From: a virus
Lineage: Duplodnaviria > Caudoviricetes
DNA: 41,283 nucleotides
Reading direction: 5' to 3' (one strand)
Virus record (IMG/VR): IMGVR_UViG_3300032253_000010
Location: 1 to 41,283 of that record
Of the stretch, positions 7,614-23,088 are shown piece by piece (the first letter of the stretch is position 1; every line of letters starts with the position of its first letter). Made by a program: the position numbers and the translations under genes. The notes below the pieces were generated by a model. That model had not been told where the DNA came from. It searched no databases and worked only from the letters and a program-made list of their open reading frames with translations.

Positions 7614-8087
7614 CTATTCAAAGTCACTATCTTTAGTGTTTGTGTTTTCTACTTGATTACATACCGAATAATCCGCTTTTACGAAGTCTAACCAGGCTTG
7701 TCTTGTGGCTCCTTTTTTGCTGCTTAATGTGGAATCGAAACTGGTGATTACACCGGCTTTTACTGACGATATATTCTGGTTTTCATCAATTGTTAATTTA
7801 CCAATAACTAATGGGTTTTCACGAAAAGCATAAACATCACATAAAATGTTTTTGTCTGTCATGTTTATACATTCTAAATAGCCTATTGCGGTTCCATTAG
7901 GTGCTGTTGTTCCGCATTTTCTAAAACCAATTTTTATTTTATTTAATATTTTTTCTGGGTTTTCACTTATTTCTTGTTTTTGCCATATAAAATCACTGTC
8001 TTTTAATTGGCCAGCCGGTAAAAAGCAGGATGATATAAATAATGTAGAGAGCAATATTGCCGATATTGTCATTATTTTTATTTTCAT
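7614..8087 (-). CDS. Putative lipoprotein co-transcribed with the repressor
   Basis: Signal peptide ending in FISSC (lipobox-like). Start overlaps the repressor stop (ATGA). Confidence 0.65.
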   Translation of the reverse strand: MKIKIMTISAILLSTLFISSCFLPAGQLKDSDFIWQKQEISENPEKILNKIKIGFRKCGTTAPNGTAIGYLECINMTDKNILCDVYAFRENPLVIGKLTIDENQNISSVKAGVITSFDSTLSSKKGATRQAWLDFVKADYSVCNQVENTNTKDSDFE

Positions 8088-8884
8088 ATCGTGTCCAATG
8101 TCATTAACAAAATATTTTTAGTTATAACTTTACTATGCGTGCGTTGCATGTGCTTGTAAAGCGCGGCAATTACCCTGCTTTTTTGCTCTACTGATAACTT
8201 TATTGTTTCTTCTATACATATTGTTTCTGTTTCTGATATCGCAGTTTTCATTAATTCTAAGTCGACACCATATGTTGGGGCTGTTTCTGCTACTTTGTTT
8301 TCATGGCTTAAGTTGGGATTAAATGGCATTAGGTCATGTGATGCCAGCTTACCATCGTCTCCAAATATTTCCTGATTACTCATTTTCCCGGCGTATAACC
8401 TACGCATAGTAAAGTCATCCGGTGATATTTCGGATACTGAGCAATGGGTGCTTTTTAATATATGCAGCGTTTCTGTATTTATGGGGCCGGCAATAATTTC
8501 TATAGCCGTGTAATCAATATGCTTTTTACCGACCAACATGGTAGTGGGTAGAGTAAGAATAATGGCAGGGTATATGTGGTTTTTTAAAACAAGAACTTCC
8601 CATTTTTCGTCATCAATATAATTACTTAAGGTTTCGGCAGTTTCTTCATCTGTAAAGCTATGGTGCACCATATAAGTCTCACCAGAACCTTCGATTAACC
8701 AGGTGAGCGATACATTTTCAGCTTTGCATATAGGGATTAGTTTTTCTGAAGCGGGTAATTCGCCGTCAAATAACCTTGCAACAAGGCCATGACTTAACCC
8801 AAGGGACTTTCCCCAAGGGTGTTTTTTTCTATTACCCAGCAAATATTCCATTCTTTCAGAAAATAAATTAACAAATTTGGACAT
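8084..8884 (-). CDS. CI-like HTH repressor (no recognisable S24 peptidase)
   Basis: N-terminal HTH (WGKSLGLSHGLVARLFDGELP..L..ICKAENVSLTWLIEG), divergent from the cro-like gene. Likely start ATG 8884 (track gives 8938). Confidence 0.75.
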   Translation of the reverse strand: MSKFVNLFSERMEYLLGNRKKHPWGKSLGLSHGLVARLFDGELPASEKLIPICKAENVSLTWLIEGSGETYMVHHSFTDEETAETLSNYIDDEKWEVLVLKNHIYPAIILTLPTTMLVGKKHIDYTAIEIIAGPINTETLHILKSTHCSVSEISPDDFTMRRLYAGKMSNQEIFGDDGKLASHDLMPFNPNLSHENKVAETAPTYGVDLELMKTAISETETICIEETIKLSVEQKSRVIAALYKHMQRTHSKVITKNILLMTLDTI

Positions 8885-8938
8885 TTTTATTTGACAGTAT
8901 CCAAATTTGGATATACCGTGTGATTCATAGTGATTCAT
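8871..8938. promoter_or_regulatory. Immunity switch: rightward promoter with palindromic operator
   Basis: TTGACA 8891-8896, 17 bp, TACCGT 8914-8919. Perfect 16-bp palindrome TATCCAAATTTGGATA (8898-8913) in the spacer. Partial copy CAAATTTGGA at 8872-8881. GTGATTCAT direct repeats at 8920 and 8930. Confidence 0.7.
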
Positions 8939-9315: not shown

Positions 9316-9783
9316 ATGTCACAAAAATCAATTAGTGATTTAGACCAGGCAAAGCACGATATTGTGCACAAAGGTAAGTTTACTGCCACTGAGCTTTCAG
9401 AGCTTACAGATATTGGTTATGGCACTTTATGCAATAAGGTGCATACCAAATCACCTAATCATTTTTTAATGGTTGATGAGGCCATTAAAATTCAAAAAAT
9501 TCAGGATGTCCGTTTTTTAATTGAGGCTGAGTGCCACGATTTAGGTGGCGTTTATATTGAAATTCCTGAAGAAATTCACAATACATCTGATGTTGATTTA
9601 ATTGCCTCCTGGGCAGCATGGCATAAAGACACCGCAGAAACAGGCACGGCAATTAGTGAAGCTTTAAAGTGTAAGCGCATTACTAAAGACCATTTAAAAA
9701 AAATTCGTAAAGAAATGTTTGAAGACTTTCAACGTGAACTAGAGCTCTATCACAGAATGGAGGCACTTTGCGATGATAAGTAA
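9316..9783 (+). CDS. Phage regulatory protein, CII-like (186/P2 type)
   Basis: Position after cro; YGTLCNKV..PNHFL.VDEA..I and LGGVYI pattern. Confidence 0.7.
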   Translation: MSQKSISDLDQAKHDIVHKGKFTATELSELTDIGYGTLCNKVHTKSPNHFLMVDEAIKIQKIQDVRFLIEAECHDLGGVYIEIPEEIHNTSDVDLIASWAAWHKDTAETGTAISEALKCKRITKDHLKKIRKEMFEDFQRELELYHRMEALCDDK

Positions 9784-10474: not shown

Positions 10475-10832
10475 GGTTAAGCCGCGGGAGGTAAGCCATG
10501 AGTAAAGAAAGATTTTTCGAGATGGTAAGTAATTACCCGAGAATTGCGAAACTTTGGAATAAAGAGCGCGAGGAATTATTGATAGAAAACCTAGAGAGTG
10601 CTCTGGGCGTTATGAGCTCTGGTGAATCTGATATGACCAGGTTTTTTGTGTCGATTTGGTTTTGGAATAATAAGCGTTATGGCTTCGACTTAATTGATGC
10701 AGTATCTCGCGTTGACATACAAGACAGAACAGTAATTTTGACATGGGTAGGTAACCCTTTTTGGCCATAATTAATTTTATCGAAAATAGACTTTATTTGT
10801 TTAGGTTAAGCCGAAGGAGGTAAGCCATGAGT
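10474..10832 (+). repeat. 30-bp direct repeat (10474-10503 and 10803-10832) containing RBS and start codon
   Basis: AGGTTAAGCCG(CG/AA)GGAGGTAAGCCATGAGT, 28/30 identical. Confidence 0.92.
10498..10770 (+). CDS. Hypothetical protein
   Basis: GGAGG RBS; 90 aa; bracketed by the 30-bp repeat. Confidence 0.75.
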   Translation: MSKERFFEMVSNYPRIAKLWNKEREELLIENLESALGVMSSGESDMTRFFVSIWFWNNKRYGFDLIDAVSRVDIQDRTVILTWVGNPFWP

Positions 10833-11435
10833 TATGCGAGAAAACAGTTTGAACGTTATTTAACGGTGGATGAAGAGAAGAAATTATTTAGTTATGTTGC
10901 ACAGTTTGGCGATGTTATGTCGCGCCGTGATTATGCCTGGATGGGGGTGCTTCGACAAAGTGGTATGCGGGTTAAGGCGATGTCTTTATTTACGGTGGAA
11001 GATGCACGGGTTTCGTTGGCCACGGGTTATTTCCACATTCGTGCTGAAACCAACAAAGGCGGTAAGGCGTACACCGTTAAAGCAAATAAAAAAGCATTAA
11101 AACATTTAAGCGCTTTGTTATCTATTCGCGTTGAAATGGGTTTTTTAGAGGTGAACGGTGGCGCATTGGTAATGGGTAGAAACCATAAGGCTTTGAGTAT
11201 TCGTAGTTATCAGGATCGCATAAAACATTGGCGCTTTGCTGCGGGTTTAAAGTGTGATGTTTCGCCGCACTGGTTTAGGCATACGTTAGCTAAACGTATT
11301 ATCAGTACATCTGTTTCTCGTAATCCATTGGCTATTGTTCAGGTGGTTTTAGGGCATGCATCAATTGTTAGCACCGGTGTGTACACCATGCCAGATAAAG
11401 AAGAGCTGTCTCTTAGTATGGAGGCAGCGTCTTAA
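10827..11435 (+). CDS. Tyrosine recombinase, catalytic domain only (202 aa)
   Basis: SGMR (Arg), TNKGG (Lys), SPHWFRH (HxxR), LGH, STGVY (Tyr). No N-terminal core-binding or arm-binding domain. Confidence 0.9.
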   Translation: MSYARKQFERYLTVDEEKKLFSYVAQFGDVMSRRDYAWMGVLRQSGMRVKAMSLFTVEDARVSLATGYFHIRAETNKGGKAYTVKANKKALKHLSALLSIRVEMGFLEVNGGALVMGRNHKALSIRSYQDRIKHWRFAAGLKCDVSPHWFRHTLAKRIISTSVSRNPLAIVQVVLGHASIVSTGVYTMPDKEELSLSMEAAS

Positions 11436-12411: not shown

Positions 12412-12728
12412 ATATTATGAAACCGCTGTTACATGAAGTTAAGGCTGCACCAAGCGCTGCGCCTGAAAACGTGATTCTTTTAGATTTACGTAAAAAAGGA
12501 CTAATAGAAAACAATGCCATATTAAAGCCGTTAAATGGTTTGTTAATGTCAAATGCAAAGGATGAGTGGTTTGAATCTAATGTAGGGCAAAGCTGTTTGC
12601 AGCCTGAAATTTTGTATAACCCAAAGGATGGGCTGAAGTATTTAAAAGAAAGGCTTGAGGCAGCTTTTATTGCCGGTGCTACTGCATCTTTTGTTGTTTT
12701 GAATGCTGATGATGAGACACAAATATGA
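12408..12728 (+). CDS. Hypothetical protein
   Basis: 4-bp overlaps with both neighbours. Confidence 0.55.
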   Translation: MNIMKPLLHEVKAAPSAAPENVILLDLRKKGLIENNAILKPLNGLLMSNAKDEWFESNVGQSCLQPEILYNPKDGLKYLKERLEAAFIAGATASFVVLNADDETQI

Positions 12729-13342
12729 CCGTTGAAGCATATCCACTATGTTGGCCAGAAGGCTGGCCACACACTGAATCACATAAACGTGAACGCTCGC
12801 GATTTAATACATCACCTGATCTGGCCCGAAGGAATTTATTAAATGAGATTAAACGTCTTATTGGTAAGTACTATTTCAAACGTTCGAACGTGATTATTTC
12901 AACAAATATTAAATTGCGTCTTGACGGTGAACCCCATATGAGTCAACGCACACCAGATGAACCAGGTGTTGCTGTTTATTTTGAGTACAAGAAAAAGCCA
13001 ATGGTATTTGCCTGTGATCGCTGGAGCCTAGTGCATGACAATTTGCACTCTATAGGAAAAACAATAGAAGCATTAAGGGGGATCGAGCGATGGGGGGCCA
13101 GTGACATGCTTGAAAGAGCTTTTACTGGTTTTGAGCAACTGCCATCACCTGGAACAGTTGGCTCAGAGAGTTGGCAGGATGTTTTACAGGTAGGAAACCA
13201 ATTTACATTTGAAGAATGTGAGAAAAATTATAAAACACTTGCATTTGATTATCACCCAGATAAACCAACTGGTAGCAATGAAAGAATGCAGCAACTTAAC
13301 TGGGCACGTCGTAAGGCCCGAGAGTTTTTTAATAAGCCATGA
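12725..13342 (+). CDS. Phage protein with C-terminal J domain
   Basis: WQDVLQV..YKTLAFDYHPDK..MQQLNWA carries the HPD motif. N-terminus AYPLCWPEGWPHT. Confidence 0.85.
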   Translation: MTVEAYPLCWPEGWPHTESHKRERSRFNTSPDLARRNLLNEIKRLIGKYYFKRSNVIISTNIKLRLDGEPHMSQRTPDEPGVAVYFEYKKKPMVFACDRWSLVHDNLHSIGKTIEALRGIERWGASDMLERAFTGFEQLPSPGTVGSESWQDVLQVGNQFTFEECEKNYKTLAFDYHPDKPTGSNERMQQLNWARRKAREFFNKP

Positions 13343-13357
13343 CACAAAGGTATAAAC

Positions 13358-13600
13358 ATGAAAAATAAATTGATTGATTTAAATAATCATCTGTTTGCTC
13401 AAATGGAACGTCTTTCAAGTGAGGATTTGAAAGACGATGAACTTAAGAACGAAATAATGCGATCAAAAGAAATGTCGAATATTGCAGGCAAAATTATTGA
13501 TAATGGCCGTCTTGCTTTTGATGCACATAAAGCAGTAGGTGACGGATTAGTTTCTGGAACACCACAAATGTTAGGTTTAGAGAAAAAAAATGGGCTTTAG
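13358..13600 (+). CDS. Conserved-type phage protein upstream of HNH gene
   Basis: MKNKLIDLNNHLFAQMERL pattern. Confidence 0.7.
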   Translation: MKNKLIDLNNHLFAQMERLSSEDLKDDELKNEIMRSKEMSNIAGKIIDNGRLAFDAHKAVGDGLVSGTPQMLGLEKKNGL

Positions 13601-14387
13601 ATACTCCCATGAGAATCTAGAATTTCTTAAACATGGTTATATTGAGATGCAGATACCAGAGCTAACAACTGCTTTTAATGGGTTTTTTGATTTAGATAAA
13701 ACTGAAGTTCAAATTAAATCAGCTTTAAAATCTCATGGTTTTAAATGTGGCAGACCTGTTGGCGTAGAAAAAGGGACTTTTCGATCATTTACAAAAGAGC
13801 AGGCTGATTTTGTTATTGAATACTATAAACAGCTAAGTTTGGTTGAATTAACAAAGGCCTTTAATAATGTCTTCAAATTAGATAAAACCGTCCAGCAAAT
13901 CAGGTGTTTTACAAGAAATCATAGTATTAAGTCTGGTCGGACTGGTCAATATTCAAAAGGTTTAAAACCATGGAATAGCGGAACAAAGGGAATATGCAAA
14001 CCAAATTCAGGTAGCTTCAAAAAAGGTGATAATCCAAAAAATATTAACCCGATAGGGCATGAACGTATATGTAATAAAGATGGGTATATTTTGGTGAAAA
14101 TAGCAGAACCAAACCCATACACAAGTGCGAAAACAAGGTACAGGCATAAGCATTTATTTATTTGGGAAAAAGCTAACGGTAAAGTTCAGCCAGGAATGGT
14201 TGTCACATTTAAAGACGGAAATAAGCTTAATTGTGATCTTGATAATTTAATCGTTATCTCAAGGGCAGAAAATCTATACCTCAACCGTCACGGTTATAAA
14301 GACTTACCTGATGAATTAAAACCAAGCATGTTGGCATTGGCGAAGCTAGAAACGAAACGTTTTGAACTAATAAAGGATAAATCATGA
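13590..14387 (+). CDS. HNH-family endonuclease-like protein
   Basis: KDGYILVK..HLFIWEKANG..VVTFKDGNKLNCDLDNL..ISRAEN. Confidence 0.8.
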   Translation: MGFRYSHENLEFLKHGYIEMQIPELTTAFNGFFDLDKTEVQIKSALKSHGFKCGRPVGVEKGTFRSFTKEQADFVIEYYKQLSLVELTKAFNNVFKLDKTVQQIRCFTRNHSIKSGRTGQYSKGLKPWNSGTKGICKPNSGSFKKGDNPKNINPIGHERICNKDGYILVKIAEPNPYTSAKTRYRHKHLFIWEKANGKVQPGMVVTFKDGNKLNCDLDNLIVISRAENLYLNRHGYKDLPDELKPSMLALAKLETKRFELIKDKS

Positions 14388-14972: not shown

Positions 14973-17702
14973 ATGGCATCAATACAACAATTAAAAGAAC
15001 AAATTGATTTACACGACTTAGCAGTAAAATTAAACCTTAAACAAGCAAAAGGTAAAAACGCAAATTATTACAGCCCACACCACAGTGACAAATCACCTAG
15101 CCTTTCAATAGATAATAAGCGTAACCGCTGGAAAGATTTTAGCGACCCGGATTCTGGCGGCTCATGTATTGACCTGGTTATGTATGTGGAAGGGGTTGAA
15201 GCGGCTGAAGCGGTTAATATTTTGCACGAAATTTTTAATATTCCTAAAGATAAACCCAACCCAAGAAATAACCAGAAAAAATCAACTGTCGAATACATCG
15301 CAGATAATTGCAAAGGCAATGATGACAAAATAATTGAATATATAACGGGTCGCAGTATCTCTCAAAAAGTGATAAAGCAGGCCATTAGTAAAGGCATGTT
15401 AGGTTTTAATACTTACATCGGTAAAACAGCTACACCAGGTGAATTTGGTTATGGTGGCCCAGGTGTCGCTTTTATTGTTAAGTGTTTGAATACTTCTAAC
15501 ATTGTTGCTGTTGATATGCGTTATCTAGACCCTGAGTTAAACGGTGGGGTTAAAACACAAATTCAGGGTGAGAAAAATGGTTATTTATGGACCAGTGATA
15601 TTCAAAAACTTAAACGATCGCATGTTGTTTTCGTTGTTGAAAGTTCGATTAATGCCTTATCAATAGACAGTTGCGAAATACCAGGTACAGCCTCAATTGC
15701 TTTAAGAGGCACGGGTAATACAGATAATTTAGACCTGCGTTTTTTAATAGGTAAAAAGGTGGTTATTTGCCTGGATAACGACCCGCAAACGGATAAAGGA
15801 AAATACCCCGGGCAGGAGGCTTCGTGGGTTTTGCATTCGCGCCTTACGGCCATGAATGTGGCTTGTCATTTAACAGACCAAACTACATGGGATGAAGATG
15901 AATATAACGATGTTAATGACATTATTCAGGATGTAGGTGTCTCGGGGTTAAAGATACATTTATCGAAGTTGCAGGGTGGGTGTATACCAGGTGTTTATGT
16001 TTCTGAAGATTACCAGGGCCCGAGGCGCATCTGGTTACCGCCACATGATTTTGCTCAGTATTGGCGTTTTAGAGTAAAAGAAGATTTCACTACCTGCATT
16101 ACTAAAATGACTGAAGATGATGACGGTAATAAAAAACCAGAGTTTGCTGATTTATGTGGTTTTAGGGTAGCTGGGCTTTCACGTATAACCGTTTCAAGCG
16201 CAGTTTCTACTATGAGTGGTGAAGAAGATACTTCGCCCAGAACTCAATTTGCTGTAAGTGTGCAAACACCTCGACACGGTAATAAATTAATTCGAAGAGT
16301 GTTTGAAGATGAGCGCTTGCATAATGTAGATCAGTGGCGAAAGTTTGGCCCTGTGTATGCACAAAATGGATTTTTACGCATGATTAATATTTTAGAGCGA
16401 GCTGCACATATTGGCTCACGTGAAGCTATTAATTTTGTTGGATTGGCATGGAGACAGGGTAAGCCAACGGTAAATGAAGGGCCTGACTGCTATTTTACCG
16501 ACCCTAATAAGCAATGCCCTTATTATAACTTATCTTTTCCATCGGGCTCAAAAAGTGACGCTAGAAAAGTGATTAAGGCTTACCAGGCAACATTTAAAAA
16601 TAATGCGGCTATGCACACTTTAATGTGGAGTATTGGGGGGCATTTAAAGGCTTTTATGGGGTTTTGGCCGCATTTAATTATGCAGGCTGATAAGGGGAGT
16701 GGTAAGTCGGTTTTAACTCAGAGGCTTTCGCGTACTGTTTCTATGACGATGTTTTCTGGCCAGTCATTACAAACCGAATACCGGTTACTTACTTCTATTA
16801 GTGGTACGTCTCACCCCATTGGCTGGGAAGAAATTTCGGCACGCTCTCAGCAGGTAATTGATAAAGCGGTTTCTTTATTACAGGAATCATATGGCTATAC
16901 GGTTACATACCGTGGCACTGATATGACTGAATATTTAATTTCTGCGCCGGTGTTGCTTGCGGGTGAAGATGTGCCAGTTAAAAGTGTTACCGGCAAAGTT
17001 GTGCGGGTTAATTTAAGCCAGCGTAAGGGCGATTTACTGCCTGAAGATTTACCTCGTTTTCCTATGCTTGAGTGGTTACAGTTTTTAGCTGAACAATCAC
17101 GCACCCAAATACTCGAGCTTCATAAAAGGGCTGTCGACCATTGCGATTATCATTGCAGAACCGATGGCAAAGATGAGGGTGCGAGCCGTATGTTAAACAA
17201 CTATGCCGCTATGCTAACCAGTTGGCGGTTGCTGTGTTCTTTTGCCGATATACCAAAAGAAACAGGCAATTTTGAAGCTGACTTATTAACTGAAATGAAT
17301 GTCCACATTGCTGAAACCAGTGGTGACCGTCAGCCCTGGGTATGGATTATTGAAACCTTGTTTAGTCAGATTTCTTCTCATATGTTTAATTACCCATATA
17401 AGTTTGTATTAATGCGTAATGAAGGTGAGCCGGTTGAATGCCTGTTAATTCGTTGTACGCATATCATGCAGCATTTTAAACACAGCCCCAGCCTTAAAGA
17501 CACCTATAACAGCCTGCCTGTTAAGTCAGATCGAGTGCTCAAACGTCAATTAAATCAGGCAGAAGTGATTTATAAAGACAGGGTTGATACAACCATCGCT
17601 AAGAAGAGAGAGAGCCACATGATGGCTCTGTCTATTGATGCGCTGGAAGCCTATGGACTGCACGTGAGCCGCCCTGAAACACCTGATGAACTCGCAGAGT
17701 AA
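14973..17702 (+). CDS. Primase-helicase replication protein (CHC2-like + TOPRIM + P-loop NTPase)
   Basis: SPHHSDKSPSLSI (CHC2-like); VVESSINAL, CLDND and NDVND (TOPRIM); ADKGSGKS Walker A; IGWEE Walker B. Confidence 0.88.
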   Translation: MASIQQLKEQIDLHDLAVKLNLKQAKGKNANYYSPHHSDKSPSLSIDNKRNRWKDFSDPDSGGSCIDLVMYVEGVEAAEAVNILHEIFNIPKDKPNPRNNQKKSTVEYIADNCKGNDDKIIEYITGRSISQKVIKQAISKGMLGFNTYIGKTATPGEFGYGGPGVAFIVKCLNTSNIVAVDMRYLDPELNGGVKTQIQGEKNGYLWTSDIQKLKRSHVVFVVESSINALSIDSCEIPGTASIALRGTGNTDNLDLRFLIGKKVVICLDNDPQTDKGKYPGQEASWVLHSRLTAMNVACHLTDQTTWDEDEYNDVNDIIQDVGVSGLKIHLSKLQGGCIPGVYVSEDYQGPRRIWLPPHDFAQYWRFRVKEDFTTCITKMTEDDDGNKKPEFADLCGFRVAGLSRITVSSAVSTMSGEEDTSPRTQFAVSVQTPRHGNKLIRRVFEDERLHNVDQWRKFGPVYAQNGFLRMINILERAAHIGSREAINFVGLAWRQGKPTVNEGPDCYFTDPNKQCPYYNLSFPSGSKSDARKVIKAYQATFKNNAAMHTLMWSIGGHLKAFMGFWPHLIMQADKGSGKSVLTQRLSRTVSMTMFSGQSLQTEYRLLTSISGTSHPIGWEEISARSQQVIDKAVSLLQESYGYTVTYRGTDMTEYLISAPVLLAGEDVPVKSVTGKVVRVNLSQRKGDLLPEDLPRFPMLEWLQFLAEQSRTQILELHKRAVDHCDYHCRTDGKDEGASRMLNNYAAMLTSWRLLCSFADIPKETGNFEADLLTEMNVHIAETSGDRQPWVWIIETLFSQISSHMFNYPYKFVLMRNEGEPVECLLIRCTHIMQHFKHSPSLKDTYNSLPVKSDRVLKRQLNQAEVIYKDRVDTTIAKKRESHMMALSIDALEAYGLHVSRPETPDELAE

Positions 17703-19956: not shown

Positions 19957-21575
19957 GTGAAAAAACCGCTGTTATTTATGCCAGAGTTTCTGATAAAAAA
20001 CAGGTCGAAAATGACATATCAATACCTGGGCAAATTGAAAGAGGACACGAAAAGGCATTATCCTTAAAGTCTAGCGTATTACAGGTTTTTACTGATGAAG
20101 GGATATCAGGAAGATCTGATAATCGCCCAAGTTTTGAGGCTGCTATTGATTTTTGTGAAATATATAAAGTCGATTATTTTATTTGTTGGTCGAGTAGTAG
20201 ATTTGCTCGAAACAGATTTAATGCAGCAATATATAAGAGACGACTAGACAATTGCGGAACTAAACTCGAGTACTTAACTTTTTCTGTTGATAGGGATACC
20301 GATTCAGGCCGATTGCTTGATGGGTTTCTTGAGATAATGGATGAGCATAAATCTGTTCAAACATCTAAAGACACGATTCGTTCACTCATTCGAAATGCTC
20401 AGTTAGGTTATTGGAATGGTGGTCGACCCGCATTCGGTTTTAAGGTTGTTCCTGCAGAAGACAACCCAAAGAAAAAACGATTAGCAGTAAATAATGAAGA
20501 ATCTTATGTAGTTAAAAAAATATTCGAATTAAGGTGCGAGGGATATGGTATTAGAACAATAGCTCAGTGGCTGAATGAAAATAATCATTTTAATAGATCT
20601 AACACCTGGAAAAAAAACACCATAGCAAATTTACTAAATAATATGGCCGTATTAGGTAAAACTGCTTTTGGAAAAACATCAAAGACAACGGGTAAAAAAC
20701 AACCTAGAGAAAATTGGATTATTGCAGATAGTCATGAAGCAATAATTACACAGGAGTTATGGGATAAAGCTCATTCAGAGATGGATAATGATAATTTGAA
20801 TACCCGAACATCATCATCTAAAAGTATGTATAAATTTACCGGTCTATTGAAATGCGGTGAATGTGGTGCTGCGATGCATACAGAAAGTGCGAAAGGTAGA
20901 ACAAGGCGTTATTGGTATTACAATTGTAGTGCATCGAAATTAAAAAAATCACATCCTCCTAGACGCTTGCCAGCTGTTGAAATAGATGATTTTTTAGTTG
21001 AATGCATTGTTACAAATATTTTCACCCGTGAAACTTTGACTGGAATATTGACCGATTTATATGATGTGTCTAACAGGTGGTTACATGACCACTCAGAACG
21101 GAGGTTATCAGTCCTTAATTCAATTAAAGGTATACAGAAAAAACTCGATAATTTATATTCGACATTAGAATTATTTGGTAAAGATGCTCCAAATTTGGGT
21201 GACTTAACAAAGAGATTAAGGCAACACAATACTCAGATTAAAGTATTTGAGGGGAAGTTAAATATTATTGATAAAGAAGAGCCACCAAAAGTGGATGTGA
21301 CAGATGAAGACGTTACTCAATTATTAGAATTTTTGATAAAAACAATCAGAGAGTCTGATGATCCTAAGAAAGTGAGAATGTTCTTTAAAACTTTTATTCA
21401 GAATGTTGTTGTTGAAAGTAAATCATTGAAGATCACATATGACCCTCAGAGACTAGTGAACCGTCCCGAATGGACGGTTCCCAGTACAAGAATTTGGCTC
21501 CCCGAACGGGACTTGCTGGGAACCAAAGTTATAAAACTTGATTTACCTGAAAAACTACAGAAAAAAGCTGCTTAA
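19953..21575 (+). CDS. Large serine recombinase (integrase)
   Basis: YARVS catalytic Ser, DEGISG, SRFAR, recombinase domain GYWNGGRPAFGF, Zn ribbon LKCGECG..YYNC, coiled coil. Confidence 0.95.
   Translation: MSEKTAVIYARVSDKKQVENDISIPGQIERGHEKALSLKSSVLQVFTDEGISGRSDNRPSFEAAIDFCEIYKVDYFICWSSSRFARNRFNAAIYKRRLDNCGTKLEYLTFSVDRDTDSGRLLDGFLEIMDEHKSVQTSKDTIRSLIRNAQLGYWNGGRPAFGFKVVPAEDNPKKKRLAVNNEESYVVKKIFELRCEGYGIRTIAQWLNENNHFNRSNTWKKNTIANLLNNMAVLGKTAFGKTSKTTGKKQPRENWIIADSHEAIITQELWDKAHSEMDNDNLNTRTSSSKSMYKFTGLLKCGECGAAMHTESAKGRTRRYWYYNCSASKLKKSHPPRRLPAVEIDDFLVECIVTNIFTRETLTGILTDLYDVSNRWLHDHSERRLSVLNSIKGIQKKLDNLYSTLELFGKDAPNLGDLTKRLRQHNTQIKVFEGKLNIIDKEEPPKVDVTDEDVTQLLEFLIKTIRESDDPKKVRMFFKTFIQNVVVESKSLKITYDPQRLVNRPEWTVPSTRIWLPERDLLGTKVIKLDLPEKLQKKAA
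21476..21524. other. Putative attP inside the serine recombinase gene, carrying a tRNA 3'-end fragment (Asn-like)
   Basis: Minus strand 21515-21495 reads CAAGT-CCCGT-TCGGGGA-G-CCA (T-loop part, T-stem, acceptor strand, discriminator, CCA). It is flanked by a perfect 9-bp inverted repeat GGTTCCCAG/CTGGGAACC. Adjacent 9-bp hairpin at 21458-21480. Confidence 0.75.
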
Positions 21576-21676: not shown

Positions 21677-22123
21677 TTATTGTTTTGGTTGCGTATTTTC
21701 TTTGGTATCAGATTGAATCTTTTGTTGCAAAGGCTGAAGCCAAAAAACAGCAACAACGACGACTATAATGCCGACAACTAAAGGAAGCAAAAAATGCTGG
21801 ACTAGCCATGGTTTTTCTTTCTTATTGGTTTTTTGAGCGTCTATCTCCTTTTGTATATCATCTGGTACTTCACCCATGGAAATGCCAACACCAACAGGGC
21901 CATTCATTTTTACTTTGCTATTAACGATTTTACCTGTACCTGTTTTGTCGTGTATTCCAATTCCATTTTCCATAGTTACGTCAGCATTATAAACTTCCGG
22001 TCTGTTTGGTTGTATTGACTTGCCACCAATACTATTACCTTGTCCACCGCCAATAGTATTTCCAGATCCTCCAGATATGGAGTTGTCCTTGCCACCATTG
22101 ATAGTGTTGTTGTCATCACTCAT
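21677..22123 (-). CDS. Membrane-anchored protein with N-terminal GGxxNxI repeats
   Basis: NTINGGKDNSISGGSGNTIGGGQGNSIGG; TM helix FLLPLVVGIIVVVVAVFWL. Confidence 0.7.
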   Translation of the reverse strand: MSDDNNTINGGKDNSISGGSGNTIGGGQGNSIGGKSIQPNRPEVYNADVTMENGIGIHDKTGTGKIVNSKVKMNGPVGVGISMGEVPDDIQKEIDAQKTNKKEKPWLVQHFLLPLVVGIIVVVVAVFWLQPLQQKIQSDTKENTQPKQ

Positions 22124-22275: not shown

Positions 22276-23088
22276 TTAGCTTTTTAGTGGTGTGTTTAGT
22301 AATTTATTAATAAATTCATCTGGTCCAGCAAACCCAACACCTTCAAAAATACAATCTTCAAATACAGTATGATATATACCGATAGCACCAATATGTCCAT
22401 TATCAGAAGATGGGTTTGGCTGCCAAATAATCGACTTAATAGAGTCACCAACAGCAAATGAACAGTTTCCTATTGTACAGTTACCCATATGAAATAAGAT
22501 TCCCGGCCCCCTAATAATGGCATTTCTAAAGTATTTTCCAGCAATTATATTCGTTTCAGTTGTAATGTCAGATAATCGGATTAGTTTACGTTGATCTAAA
22601 TCGATATTTAAAGCAGTCTCAATTTCCGATTGAAATGTAGTCCACGATGCCTCAAAAGCCTGCTTTAATTCTGATTCGTTGCGTTTCCCTGTCGGTAATA
22701 TTTCGTTAATTTCAATCACAAGTTTTTCAATATCATGTTTATTTGCTTGCGTATGTTGAAACTGTGAAAGTGGTGACCCCTGTAAATGCTCTGGACTAAG
22801 ATCGTCTAACAGTAATGTCCATACTTTGGGCTTGTCAGTAGTTTTTGATAATGCACCGGCTTCAAATAGTAACCATGGCTCTTCATAATTATCTTTAGTC
22901 AAACAAATTATACCTTGTTGAGATTTGCATAACTTTTCAAACAAATCTGTACTCCATTGACCGCCTTTTTTAAGATCTTCTGATGATAAAAAAGGAGCAG
23001 TGGTTGGAAATATTTGACGTAGAAAGACTTTAGTTGCAATAGCTACTTTCTGACTTATGGATCCAGACCAACTTAAAAAGATATCCAA
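22276..23088 (-). CDS. TIR-domain protein with an unrecognised beta-rich C-terminal domain
   Basis: IFLSWSG, DLKKGGQW, GIICLT, PWLLFEAGAL (catalytic Glu). TTG start with AAGGAG RBS. Low GC, opposite strand. Confidence 0.9.
   Translation of the reverse strand: MDIFLSWSGSISQKVAIATKVFLRQIFPTTAPFLSSEDLKKGGQWSTDLFEKLCKSQQGIICLTKDNYEEPWLLFEAGALSKTTDKPKVWTLLLDDLSPEHLQGSPLSQFQHTQANKHDIEKLVIEINEILPTGKRNESELKQAFEASWTTFQSEIETALNIDLDQRKLIRLSDITTETNIIAGKYFRNAIIRGPGILFHMGNCTIGNCSFAVGDSIKSIIWQPNPSSDNGHIGAIGIYHTVFEDCIFEGVGFAGPDEFINKLLNTPLKS

Follow-up and report, generated by a model that had tools for sequence, protein, structure and literature searches.

Can a phage alter the C-terminus of its own integrase by the act of integrating? 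The question arises from a large serine integrase encoded in a DNA stretch of 41,283 bases (hereafter the window), which is the entire record of a single virus contig. The free-phage form of the protein has the C-terminus WLPERDLLGTKVIKLDLPEKLQKKAA, and its last codons overlap a candidate attachment site, where, according to a first-pass annotation of the sequence, integration at a tRNA gene would replace the C-terminus and remove a degron-like tail.

By Pfam, the window encodes tail and head proteins, a primase, two tyrosine recombinases and one large serine recombinase. No terminal repeat was found in the window, and long reading frames leave both contig ends, the left one being the tape-measure gene. 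A scan of the window for tRNA genes also found none, in line with the earlier assignment of the site to its unintegrated form. The integrase gene is the last of a plus-strand gene run that starts at 9316 and contains the primase, tyrosine recombinase A and a 162-residue gene (Table 1). The product of this small gene has no match in Pfam or PHROG. A homologue lies upstream of the integrase in 70 of the 89 loci with sufficient flank, and the gene at the matching position of phage yong1 is annotated as a middle operon regulator; the gene places the integrase at the end of an early/replication gene run. The primase (14973–17702, 909 residues) combines a CHC2 zinc finger and a Toprim domain with a long C-terminal part that lacks a Pfam match, and is preceded by DnaJ-domain and HNH genes (12725–14387). 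On the opposite strand, two cargo genes adjoin attP (21677–22123 and 22276–23088), the second of which shows a weak TIR_2 match (E = 1.4e-4, below the cut-off) together with phrog_13899, and is possibly a defence gene.

The integrase possesses the features of a large serine integrase: catalytic, recombinase and zinc-ribbon domains and a coiled coil. Its catalytic serine motif, R11-V12-S13, is invariant across 62 aligned sequences, and its AlphaFold2 model superposes on the SPbeta integrase (9dxh) with a Z score of 19.5 and an rmsd of 17.4 Å over 476 residues. Most of the solved integrases align only to residues 497–504 and a few phiC31 chains to 510–513, while none of the solved chains aligned past residue 513 or to the predicted strand at residues 525–530.

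Table 1. Positions of the integrase, its attachment site and related genes in the window.
Feature	Position	Strand	Basis or remark
Large serine integrase, free-phage form, 540 aa	19953..21575	+	Resolvase PF00239, Recombinase PF07508, Zn_ribbon_recom PF13408
Upstream gene, 162 aa	19468..19956	+	Its stop overlaps the integrase start
Tyrosine recombinase A, 331 aa	18247..19242	+	Pfam; rival enzyme
Tyrosine recombinase B, 202 aa, catalytic domain only	10827..11435	+	Pfam and PHROG; second rival enzyme
Repressor-like gene	8084..8938		12 kb from the integrase-borne site
Hairpin in coding sequence, directly 3' of the restored CCA	21458..21480	-	9-bp stems 21458–21466 / 21472–21480
Inferred attP, 49 bp	21476..21524	.	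Outer 9-bp inverted motifs 21476–21484 / 21516–21524, 31 nt between
7-bp core common to both prophage ends	21495..21501	+	19/19 evaluable pairs
tRNA-Asn-like 3' end, 21-mer	21495..21515	-	Single occurrence in the window
Swappable tail, codons 518–540 and stop	21504..21575	+	Core mapping and family comparison
Predicted β-strand of the tail, residues 525–530	21525..21542		Tail landmark
Terminal Ala-Ala of the tail	21567..21572		Tail landmark

A probable attachment site in the last integrase codons

The 49-bp site within the last integrase codons is very likely the phage attP. The span and the perfect 9-bp inverted repeat that bounds it, both noted in the first-pass annotation, were confirmed, and the two outer motifs are likely the binding sites predicted for the zinc-ribbon domain (DBD2). 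Taken alone, a repeat of this kind is weak evidence, as five window positions carry one at a spacing of 20–40 nt, two of them inside the integrase gene, and the case for attP is therefore carried by conservation in the family. The spacing seen at 21476/21524 gives the best pairing in 40 of the 46 distinct free sites, with at least seven of the nine bases matching in 37 of the 46. Moreover, the codons beneath the outer motifs and the core are nearly fixed across the family, and such near-fixed codon choice indicates selection at the DNA level, as expected of a DNA site. A blastn search of GenBank phages with the 49-bp site returned no match.

Variants of the site were seen elsewhere. In the alphaproteobacterial relatives L051 and L053, 13 bases instead of 10 separate the left motif from the Trp codon. 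Two other contigs, from runs X1 and X2, match only the att arm (window 21489–21527), with host-like DNA before it, including one terminator-like hairpin, and a related tail after it; they are likely the far ends of related prophages from the same samples.

Inside the site, the codons for WLPERDL had been read as the reverse complement of a 21-nt tRNA 3' end. The stretch is present, but the exact 21-mer was not recovered in any tRNA: a search of JGI metagenomes, proposed as a means of predicting the host, gave the window's own contig (L182) as the sole exact match, and the best-matching tRNA-Asn detected agrees at 20 of the 21 positions (L207, among 401 genomes in the class of genome G001). The tRNA-like pattern occurs with at most one mismatch in 36 of these 401 genomes, and, for the class of G002, with zero mismatches in none of 133 genomes. 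Most relatives match their tRNA at 14–20 of the 21 positions (mode 16), and the window is among the two best in the family. From the positions of the core and the crossover described below, only 21495–21499, corresponding to tRNA positions 72–76, would enter the restored tRNA, and the remainder of the 21-mer is likely a recombinase-domain arm that resembles attB.

The hairpin beyond the CCA, a further element of the first-pass annotation, was also found where it had been placed. When folding was compared with shuffled sequences, the hairpin region reached a z score below −2 in 50 of the 105 family sites, versus 28 of 525 control windows. A role as an intrinsic terminator was rejected: without a U run, it is not a classic terminator, and it is absent from the terminator scan list. 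Integration would carry the original trailer hairpin of the tRNA off to the far prophage end, and the hairpin in the integrase gene is likely its substitute.

Free and integrated forms among the relatives

A protein search gave 240 matches, and the tail counts for free and short forms given here and below refer to the best 120 of these 240. In this set, 88 tails are of the free type, 27 are of the integrated (short) type and 5 are unclassified. The closest relative among the matches listed, P0002 (63% identity), is a short form. The free tails read Trp-Leu-Pro, then Leu-Gly/Arg-Thr, as in the window, and 52 of the 88 have a length of 25–26 residues from Trp. The 27 short tails end in Trp-Leu-Pro-x-x-Asp/Gly-Ser-Asn, with 26 of them extending 13 residues from Trp, and integrated forms are typically 13 residues shorter than free forms. 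The two tail forms are states, not clades. For 26 of the 27 short forms, the closest protein body, at up to 93% identity, belongs to a free form, where 77% of short forms would be expected to have a free neighbour at random, and a FastTree tree requires 27 tail-state changes of 27 possible (shuffle mean 24.5).

At the DNA level, a scan of viral contigs with the single protein found no match, and the alignment query gave matches. The resulting 161 rows were reduced to 105 distinct loci (59 integrated and 46 free) by dropping duplicates and entries that fell below 31% identity, did not reach residue 495 or lacked a Trp anchor or a stop. An antisense tRNA whose 3' end coincides with the Trp codon was called in 38 of the 59 integrated loci and in none of the 46 free loci; of the other integrated loci, 16 are truncated where the contig stops and 5 lack a tRNA call. 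In the integrated relatives, the gene points out of the prophage and overlaps the intact tRNA in antisense, and the short-form stop usually corresponds to the anticodon loop read backwards. The tRNA-Asn target suggested by the first-pass annotation was called at the ends of integrated relatives, and the targets called also include tRNAs for Arg, Glu, His and Met.

To locate the exchanged tails, the free-arm pattern was searched in 20 Asn-type genomes and a looser pattern in 5 others. In 20 of the 25 genomes (16 of 20 Asn-type and 4 of 5 others), the lost free tail was located about 40–49 kb upstream, on the contig and strand of the integrated end. These far prophage ends consist of host DNA, often with a terminator-like hairpin, followed by the lost tail, and a scan of 19 far-end loci, the L043 match included, called no tRNA. 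L046 gave no match and L041 none at the expected place; the matches in L002 and L036 were set aside as not fitting the expected contig, and that in L043 was dropped as lying on another contig. Both prophage ends thus show the tail swap in the relatives.

L018, the contig of which ends at the Trp codon, was excluded from core mapping. On the point set beforehand as the refuting test, the integrated relatives break at the predicted site, with the same core in every evaluable pair (Table 1). Counted from the Trp codon, the core covers positions 0–6, stopping at 6 in 5 pairs and starting at 0 in 10. In the His- and Glu-targeting relatives, identity to their own tRNA extends up to and including position 6; at positions 7–9, the His case again follows the family consensus. 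A central 2-bp crossover, as expected of large serine integrases, would thereby be confined to 7 bp; the spacer has an odd length (31 bp), so that one arm would be displaced by 1 bp relative to such a crossover. Given the dyad centre at 21500, the His and Glu cases and the core bounds, the crossover dinucleotide is probably 21500–21501, corresponding to tRNA positions 70–71. With this crossover, the phage would supply only the last five nucleotides of the tRNA, not 21. The proposal that integration restores the tRNA is supported in the relatives, in which the tRNAs are intact, with a smaller phage share than had been proposed. Similarly, the swap of the last 19 or so residues is borne out in the relatives, but by the mapped core 23 residues (codons 518–540) would change their source, about 19 of which lie beyond the tRNA-like stretch.

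The window's own phage would very probably undergo the same tail swap. The proposed search for attL and attR succeeded for integrated relatives, but not for this phage: the contigs from four runs contained only att-like ends of related elements and no junction or integrated copy of it. No RNA dataset is listed among the sequencing runs that contain it.

Several relatives merit a description of their own. Among close relatives, L042, L131 and L028 target tRNA-His, L032 and L041 tRNA-Glu, L015 tRNA-Arg and L155 tRNA-Met. L042 and the Asn-type free sites of L137 and L138 are nearly identical before Trp, suggesting that retargeting takes few core bases. In L008, L105, L109 and L110, agreement of the integrated end with antisense tRNA-Asn breaks off shortly beyond the anticodon loop, a pattern that would be expected had a second element inserted at this loop. 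L017 and L016 have damaged integrase ends; L017 is without the left attP arm, and its gene joins a tRNA fragment in another frame. Antisense ends on tRNAs for Arg, Ala, Leu, Pro, Tyr and Val were found for the distant serine recombinases L051, L057, L060, L061, L064–L067, L072, L073 and L075–L077, among which L072, L073 and L075–L077 look like a single integrase type at four different tRNAs. Phage yong1 (L001, MT855965.1), with Microcystis as its recorded host, carries the same module with a free-type site; the records of close integrated relatives name proteobacteria, and the yong1 host label may deserve a check.

Candidate enzymes at the site

The window encodes three candidate enzymes for this reaction, and the geometry of the site bears on the choice between them. 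In the consensus of 46 free and 48 integrated sites, GAAC of the right attP motif occupies positions 25–28 of the free sites, versus positions 20–23 in the tRNA T-loop read backwards. According to the SPbeta study (PMC11722253), the DBD2 motif of large serine integrases is shifted inward by 5 bp in attB relative to attP, and by 4 bp in SPbeta. The 5-bp inward shift observed here is this attB/attP signature, and argues against the two tyrosine recombinases. An offset of −5 is the best in 34 of the 59 integrated sites, where typically only 5–6 of the 9 bases match, and the shifted motif is seen on the tRNA arm only, the host-side downstream attB arm being without a conserved motif. The tRNA T-loop would accordingly act as the attB zinc-ribbon motif, and it is very probably the serine integrase that performs the integration reaction.

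The first-pass annotation had allowed that one of the tyrosine recombinases might use the site instead, the serine recombinase being only the gene that is switched. A length of 7 bp is typical of the overlap in tyrosine-type recombination, and the 7-bp core fits it; the odd spacing of the repeats also speaks for this reading. Nearly all members of the family carry a tyrosine recombinase: recombinase A lies upstream of the serine integrase in 82 of the 89 loci, and a PF00589 match is still present in 4 of the 5 checked records without a match to recombinase A. Furthermore, serine recombinases were not known to target tRNA genes, according to the Islander paper (PMC4383910). However, the repeats lie 14–15 bp from the crossover and not beside the core, the attB motif is shifted by 5 bp, and distant serine recombinases (26–29% identity) also end antisense on tRNAs; DsiB, discussed below, provides a serine precedent. 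Site geometry disfavours integration by a tyrosine recombinase, which is compatible with the co-occurrence but seems highly improbable. If the serine enzyme integrates the phage, the two tyrosine recombinases, one of which consists of a catalytic domain only, would have to serve some other purpose.

The exchanged tail and its relation to known systems

The degron-like character that the first-pass annotation ascribed to the free end is conserved at the protein level in the family. Among the 88 free tails of the best 120 of 240 matches, 59 end in Ala-Ala, 67 in Ala-Ala or Val-Ala, and 76 in Ala, as compared to an Ala-Ala frequency of 0.4% expected from the interior composition, and 60 have a basic residue directly before this end. 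In the integrated forms, Ala-Ala is found in 0 of 27 and Asp in 25 of 27; acidic C-terminal ends are known to resist ClpXP-type proteases. Across 24 loci, each of the four Ala codons is used in the terminal pair and each of the three stops is represented, which indicates selection on the protein. None of the other open reading frames of the window ends in Ala-Ala, among 44 listed. The ssrA degron ends in LAA and the MuA degron in RRKKAI (PMC12723719), and the free integrase end conforms to the predicted ClpXP C-terminal pattern of a terminal Ala-Ala or a basic residue with a small hydrophobic end. The pattern has exceptions. Of the 88 tails, 21 end in neither Ala-Ala nor Val-Ala, and of the 36 tails that differ from the two most frequent lengths, only 18 have such an end. 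On the tree, the losses are grouped (14 changes versus 15–21 in shuffles), so that the 88 free tails are not independent. Nor do all targets give an Asp end: with the best-matching tRNA, the reading frame would terminate after Gln, and His targets leave a tail of three residues.

Service as a degron is probably the main role of the tail. The tail contains more than a degron needs, however. Two AlphaFold2 runs gave a low-confidence linker at about residues 504–520, followed by the strand at 525–530 in a block with a pLDDT of about 80, and the tail also has a conserved hydrophobic stretch and a Pro-Arg-Phe motif, and Pro532 is conserved. The predicted strand, and the failure of solved integrases to align past residue 513, leave room for packing of the tail against the enzyme as well. 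Its role could then be mainly structural or regulatory, with the strand packing on the zinc-ribbon domain, the free form being integration-competent, and the short form weaker or excision-biased. The binding of the directionality factor to DBD2 in SPbeta (PMC11722253) is compatible with this, and the DsiB authors raised the same possibility (PMC3146451). On the other hand, a structural tail leaves the codon-independent Ala-Ala unexplained, and the short form is complete, with all of the known domains encoded before the crossover. We regard a mainly structural role as rather unlikely, and it can coexist with a degron.

The overlap might, alternatively, reflect the mere compact packing of attP beside the integrase gene, the tail being an ordinary protein end without regulatory meaning. 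Residues 504–521 are indeed of low confidence and shaped by DNA-level constraints, and about a quarter of the free tails in the best 120 of 240 lack Ala-Ala or Val-Ala. A meaningless end would hardly show the sharp length peak described above, though, nor an Ala-Ala that survives synonymous change and tail lengths from 23 to 37 residues, and 15 of the 20 far-end tails in lysogens still end in Ala-Ala or Val-Ala. Simple packing is highly improbable.

The best explanation, and probably the correct one, is that integration at a host tRNA-Asn gene would exchange a likely protease tag ending in Ala-Ala for a short, tRNA-derived tail. Encoded last in the early/replication run, the integrase would be made during lytic growth, and ClpXP or a comparable protease would remove the tagged free form, which would restrict both integration and re-integration; in a newly infecting or lytic phage, integration would require the enzyme to outrun proteolysis. 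Integration would cut at tRNA positions 70–71, and the phage would restore the last five nucleotides and provide the new trailer hairpin. An induced prophage would then produce untagged, stable integrase for excision, after which the tag would return and limit re-integration. More speculatively, the tail may be a state sensor with two jobs, its strand docking on the zinc-ribbon domain, at the place bound by directionality factors, and its end acting as a degron. The direction and the lifetime of the integrase would both be set by the integration of its own gene, perhaps without a separate directionality factor, and the family could retarget between tRNAs by a few core-base changes because the enzyme would read the universal T-loop. 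We consider this joint reading doubtful.

If the preferred exchange of tag for tRNA-derived tail is correct, it constitutes a one-gene feedback switch in which recombination edits the recombinase, bringing lambda-style state control of Int to the protein level, in a widespread proteobacterial phage family with a self-editing integrase. The relatives show serine integrases at tRNA genes, a combination that the 2014 paper (PMC4383910) called unknown, apparently with the T-loop as the zinc-ribbon motif. Integrases mined from prophages would be short forms and those derived from virions tagged forms, which could alter the measured activity, and tools for annotation and att mapping should expect integrase genes that run across att. 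A serine integrase that targets tRNA genes, with a natural site in many bacteria, is also a useful engineering lead.

In the literature covered (titles and abstract openings, mostly outside subscription journals), no serine integrase that loses a degron at a tRNA was described. The main text of Durrant 2022 (PMC10083194) contains neither "tRNA" nor "C-termin", and the available portions of PMC12884075, PMC13626063 and bioRxiv 2020.12.28.424599 contain nothing on an integrase gene across att. In domain order, fold, an attP of about 50 bp with outer motifs and an attB shift of 4–5 bp inward, the integrase resembles those of SPbeta, Bxb1, LI and phiC31; none of their solved chains aligned to the window tail beyond residue 513. 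Large serine integrases depend on a directionality factor to excise, and none was recognised here. The closest serine precedent is DsiB of Dehalococcoides, also a recombinase of 540 residues, with its 3' end over attL/attP and antisense into a stable-RNA gene; the gene always overlaps the att site, and a regulatory relevance was suggested (McMurdie 2011, PMC3146451). Unlike the window integrase, DsiB targets tmRNA (ssrA), resides in non-phage islands and has a second recombinase, DsiA. The available portions of that report call the C-terminus divergent and mention neither a conserved free tail nor a degron nor a T-loop motif, and the comparison is by description only.

Other relatives in design are tyrosine enzymes. 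The archaeal SSV-type suicidal integrases also have the att site within the gene, but these genes are split into inactive halves, whereas the window integrase keeps all of its catalytic and DNA-binding domains (PMC8371274). The Islander paper (PMC4383910) lists both Mx8 and SSV integrases as crossing attP, and in Mx8 the gene extends across attP and integration alters the C-terminus, as in the present family, and thereby regulates activity (PMC4383910, PMC11610982). The Mx8 integrase differs in being a tyrosine recombinase. Mx8 reportedly targets a tRNA gene and exchanges a much longer segment than the window integrase, and its altered-tail enzyme is said to be weaker or excision-biased. We know of no degron in Mx8. 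The Int of mycobacteriophage BPs is likewise of the tyrosine type. Integration of BPs removes a C-terminal degradation tag from the repressor, the gene that holds attP, and Int, which is also tagged, keeps its tag (Broussard and Hatfull, PMC3694055). In the window it is the integrase itself that would lose the tag, the repressor-like gene being distant (Table 1). In the sib retroregulation of lambda, Int of the free phage is kept down through RNA decay by an element spanning attP that integration removes; the switch proposed here would be its protein-tail counterpart. The relatives show the hallmarks of the Mx8/DsiB type, namely a reading frame across the att site and distinct C-termini in the free and integrated states, with the window representing the free state. 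The self-editing integrase is therefore real and well supported, as a variant of the self-overlapping integrases of the Mx8/DsiB type.
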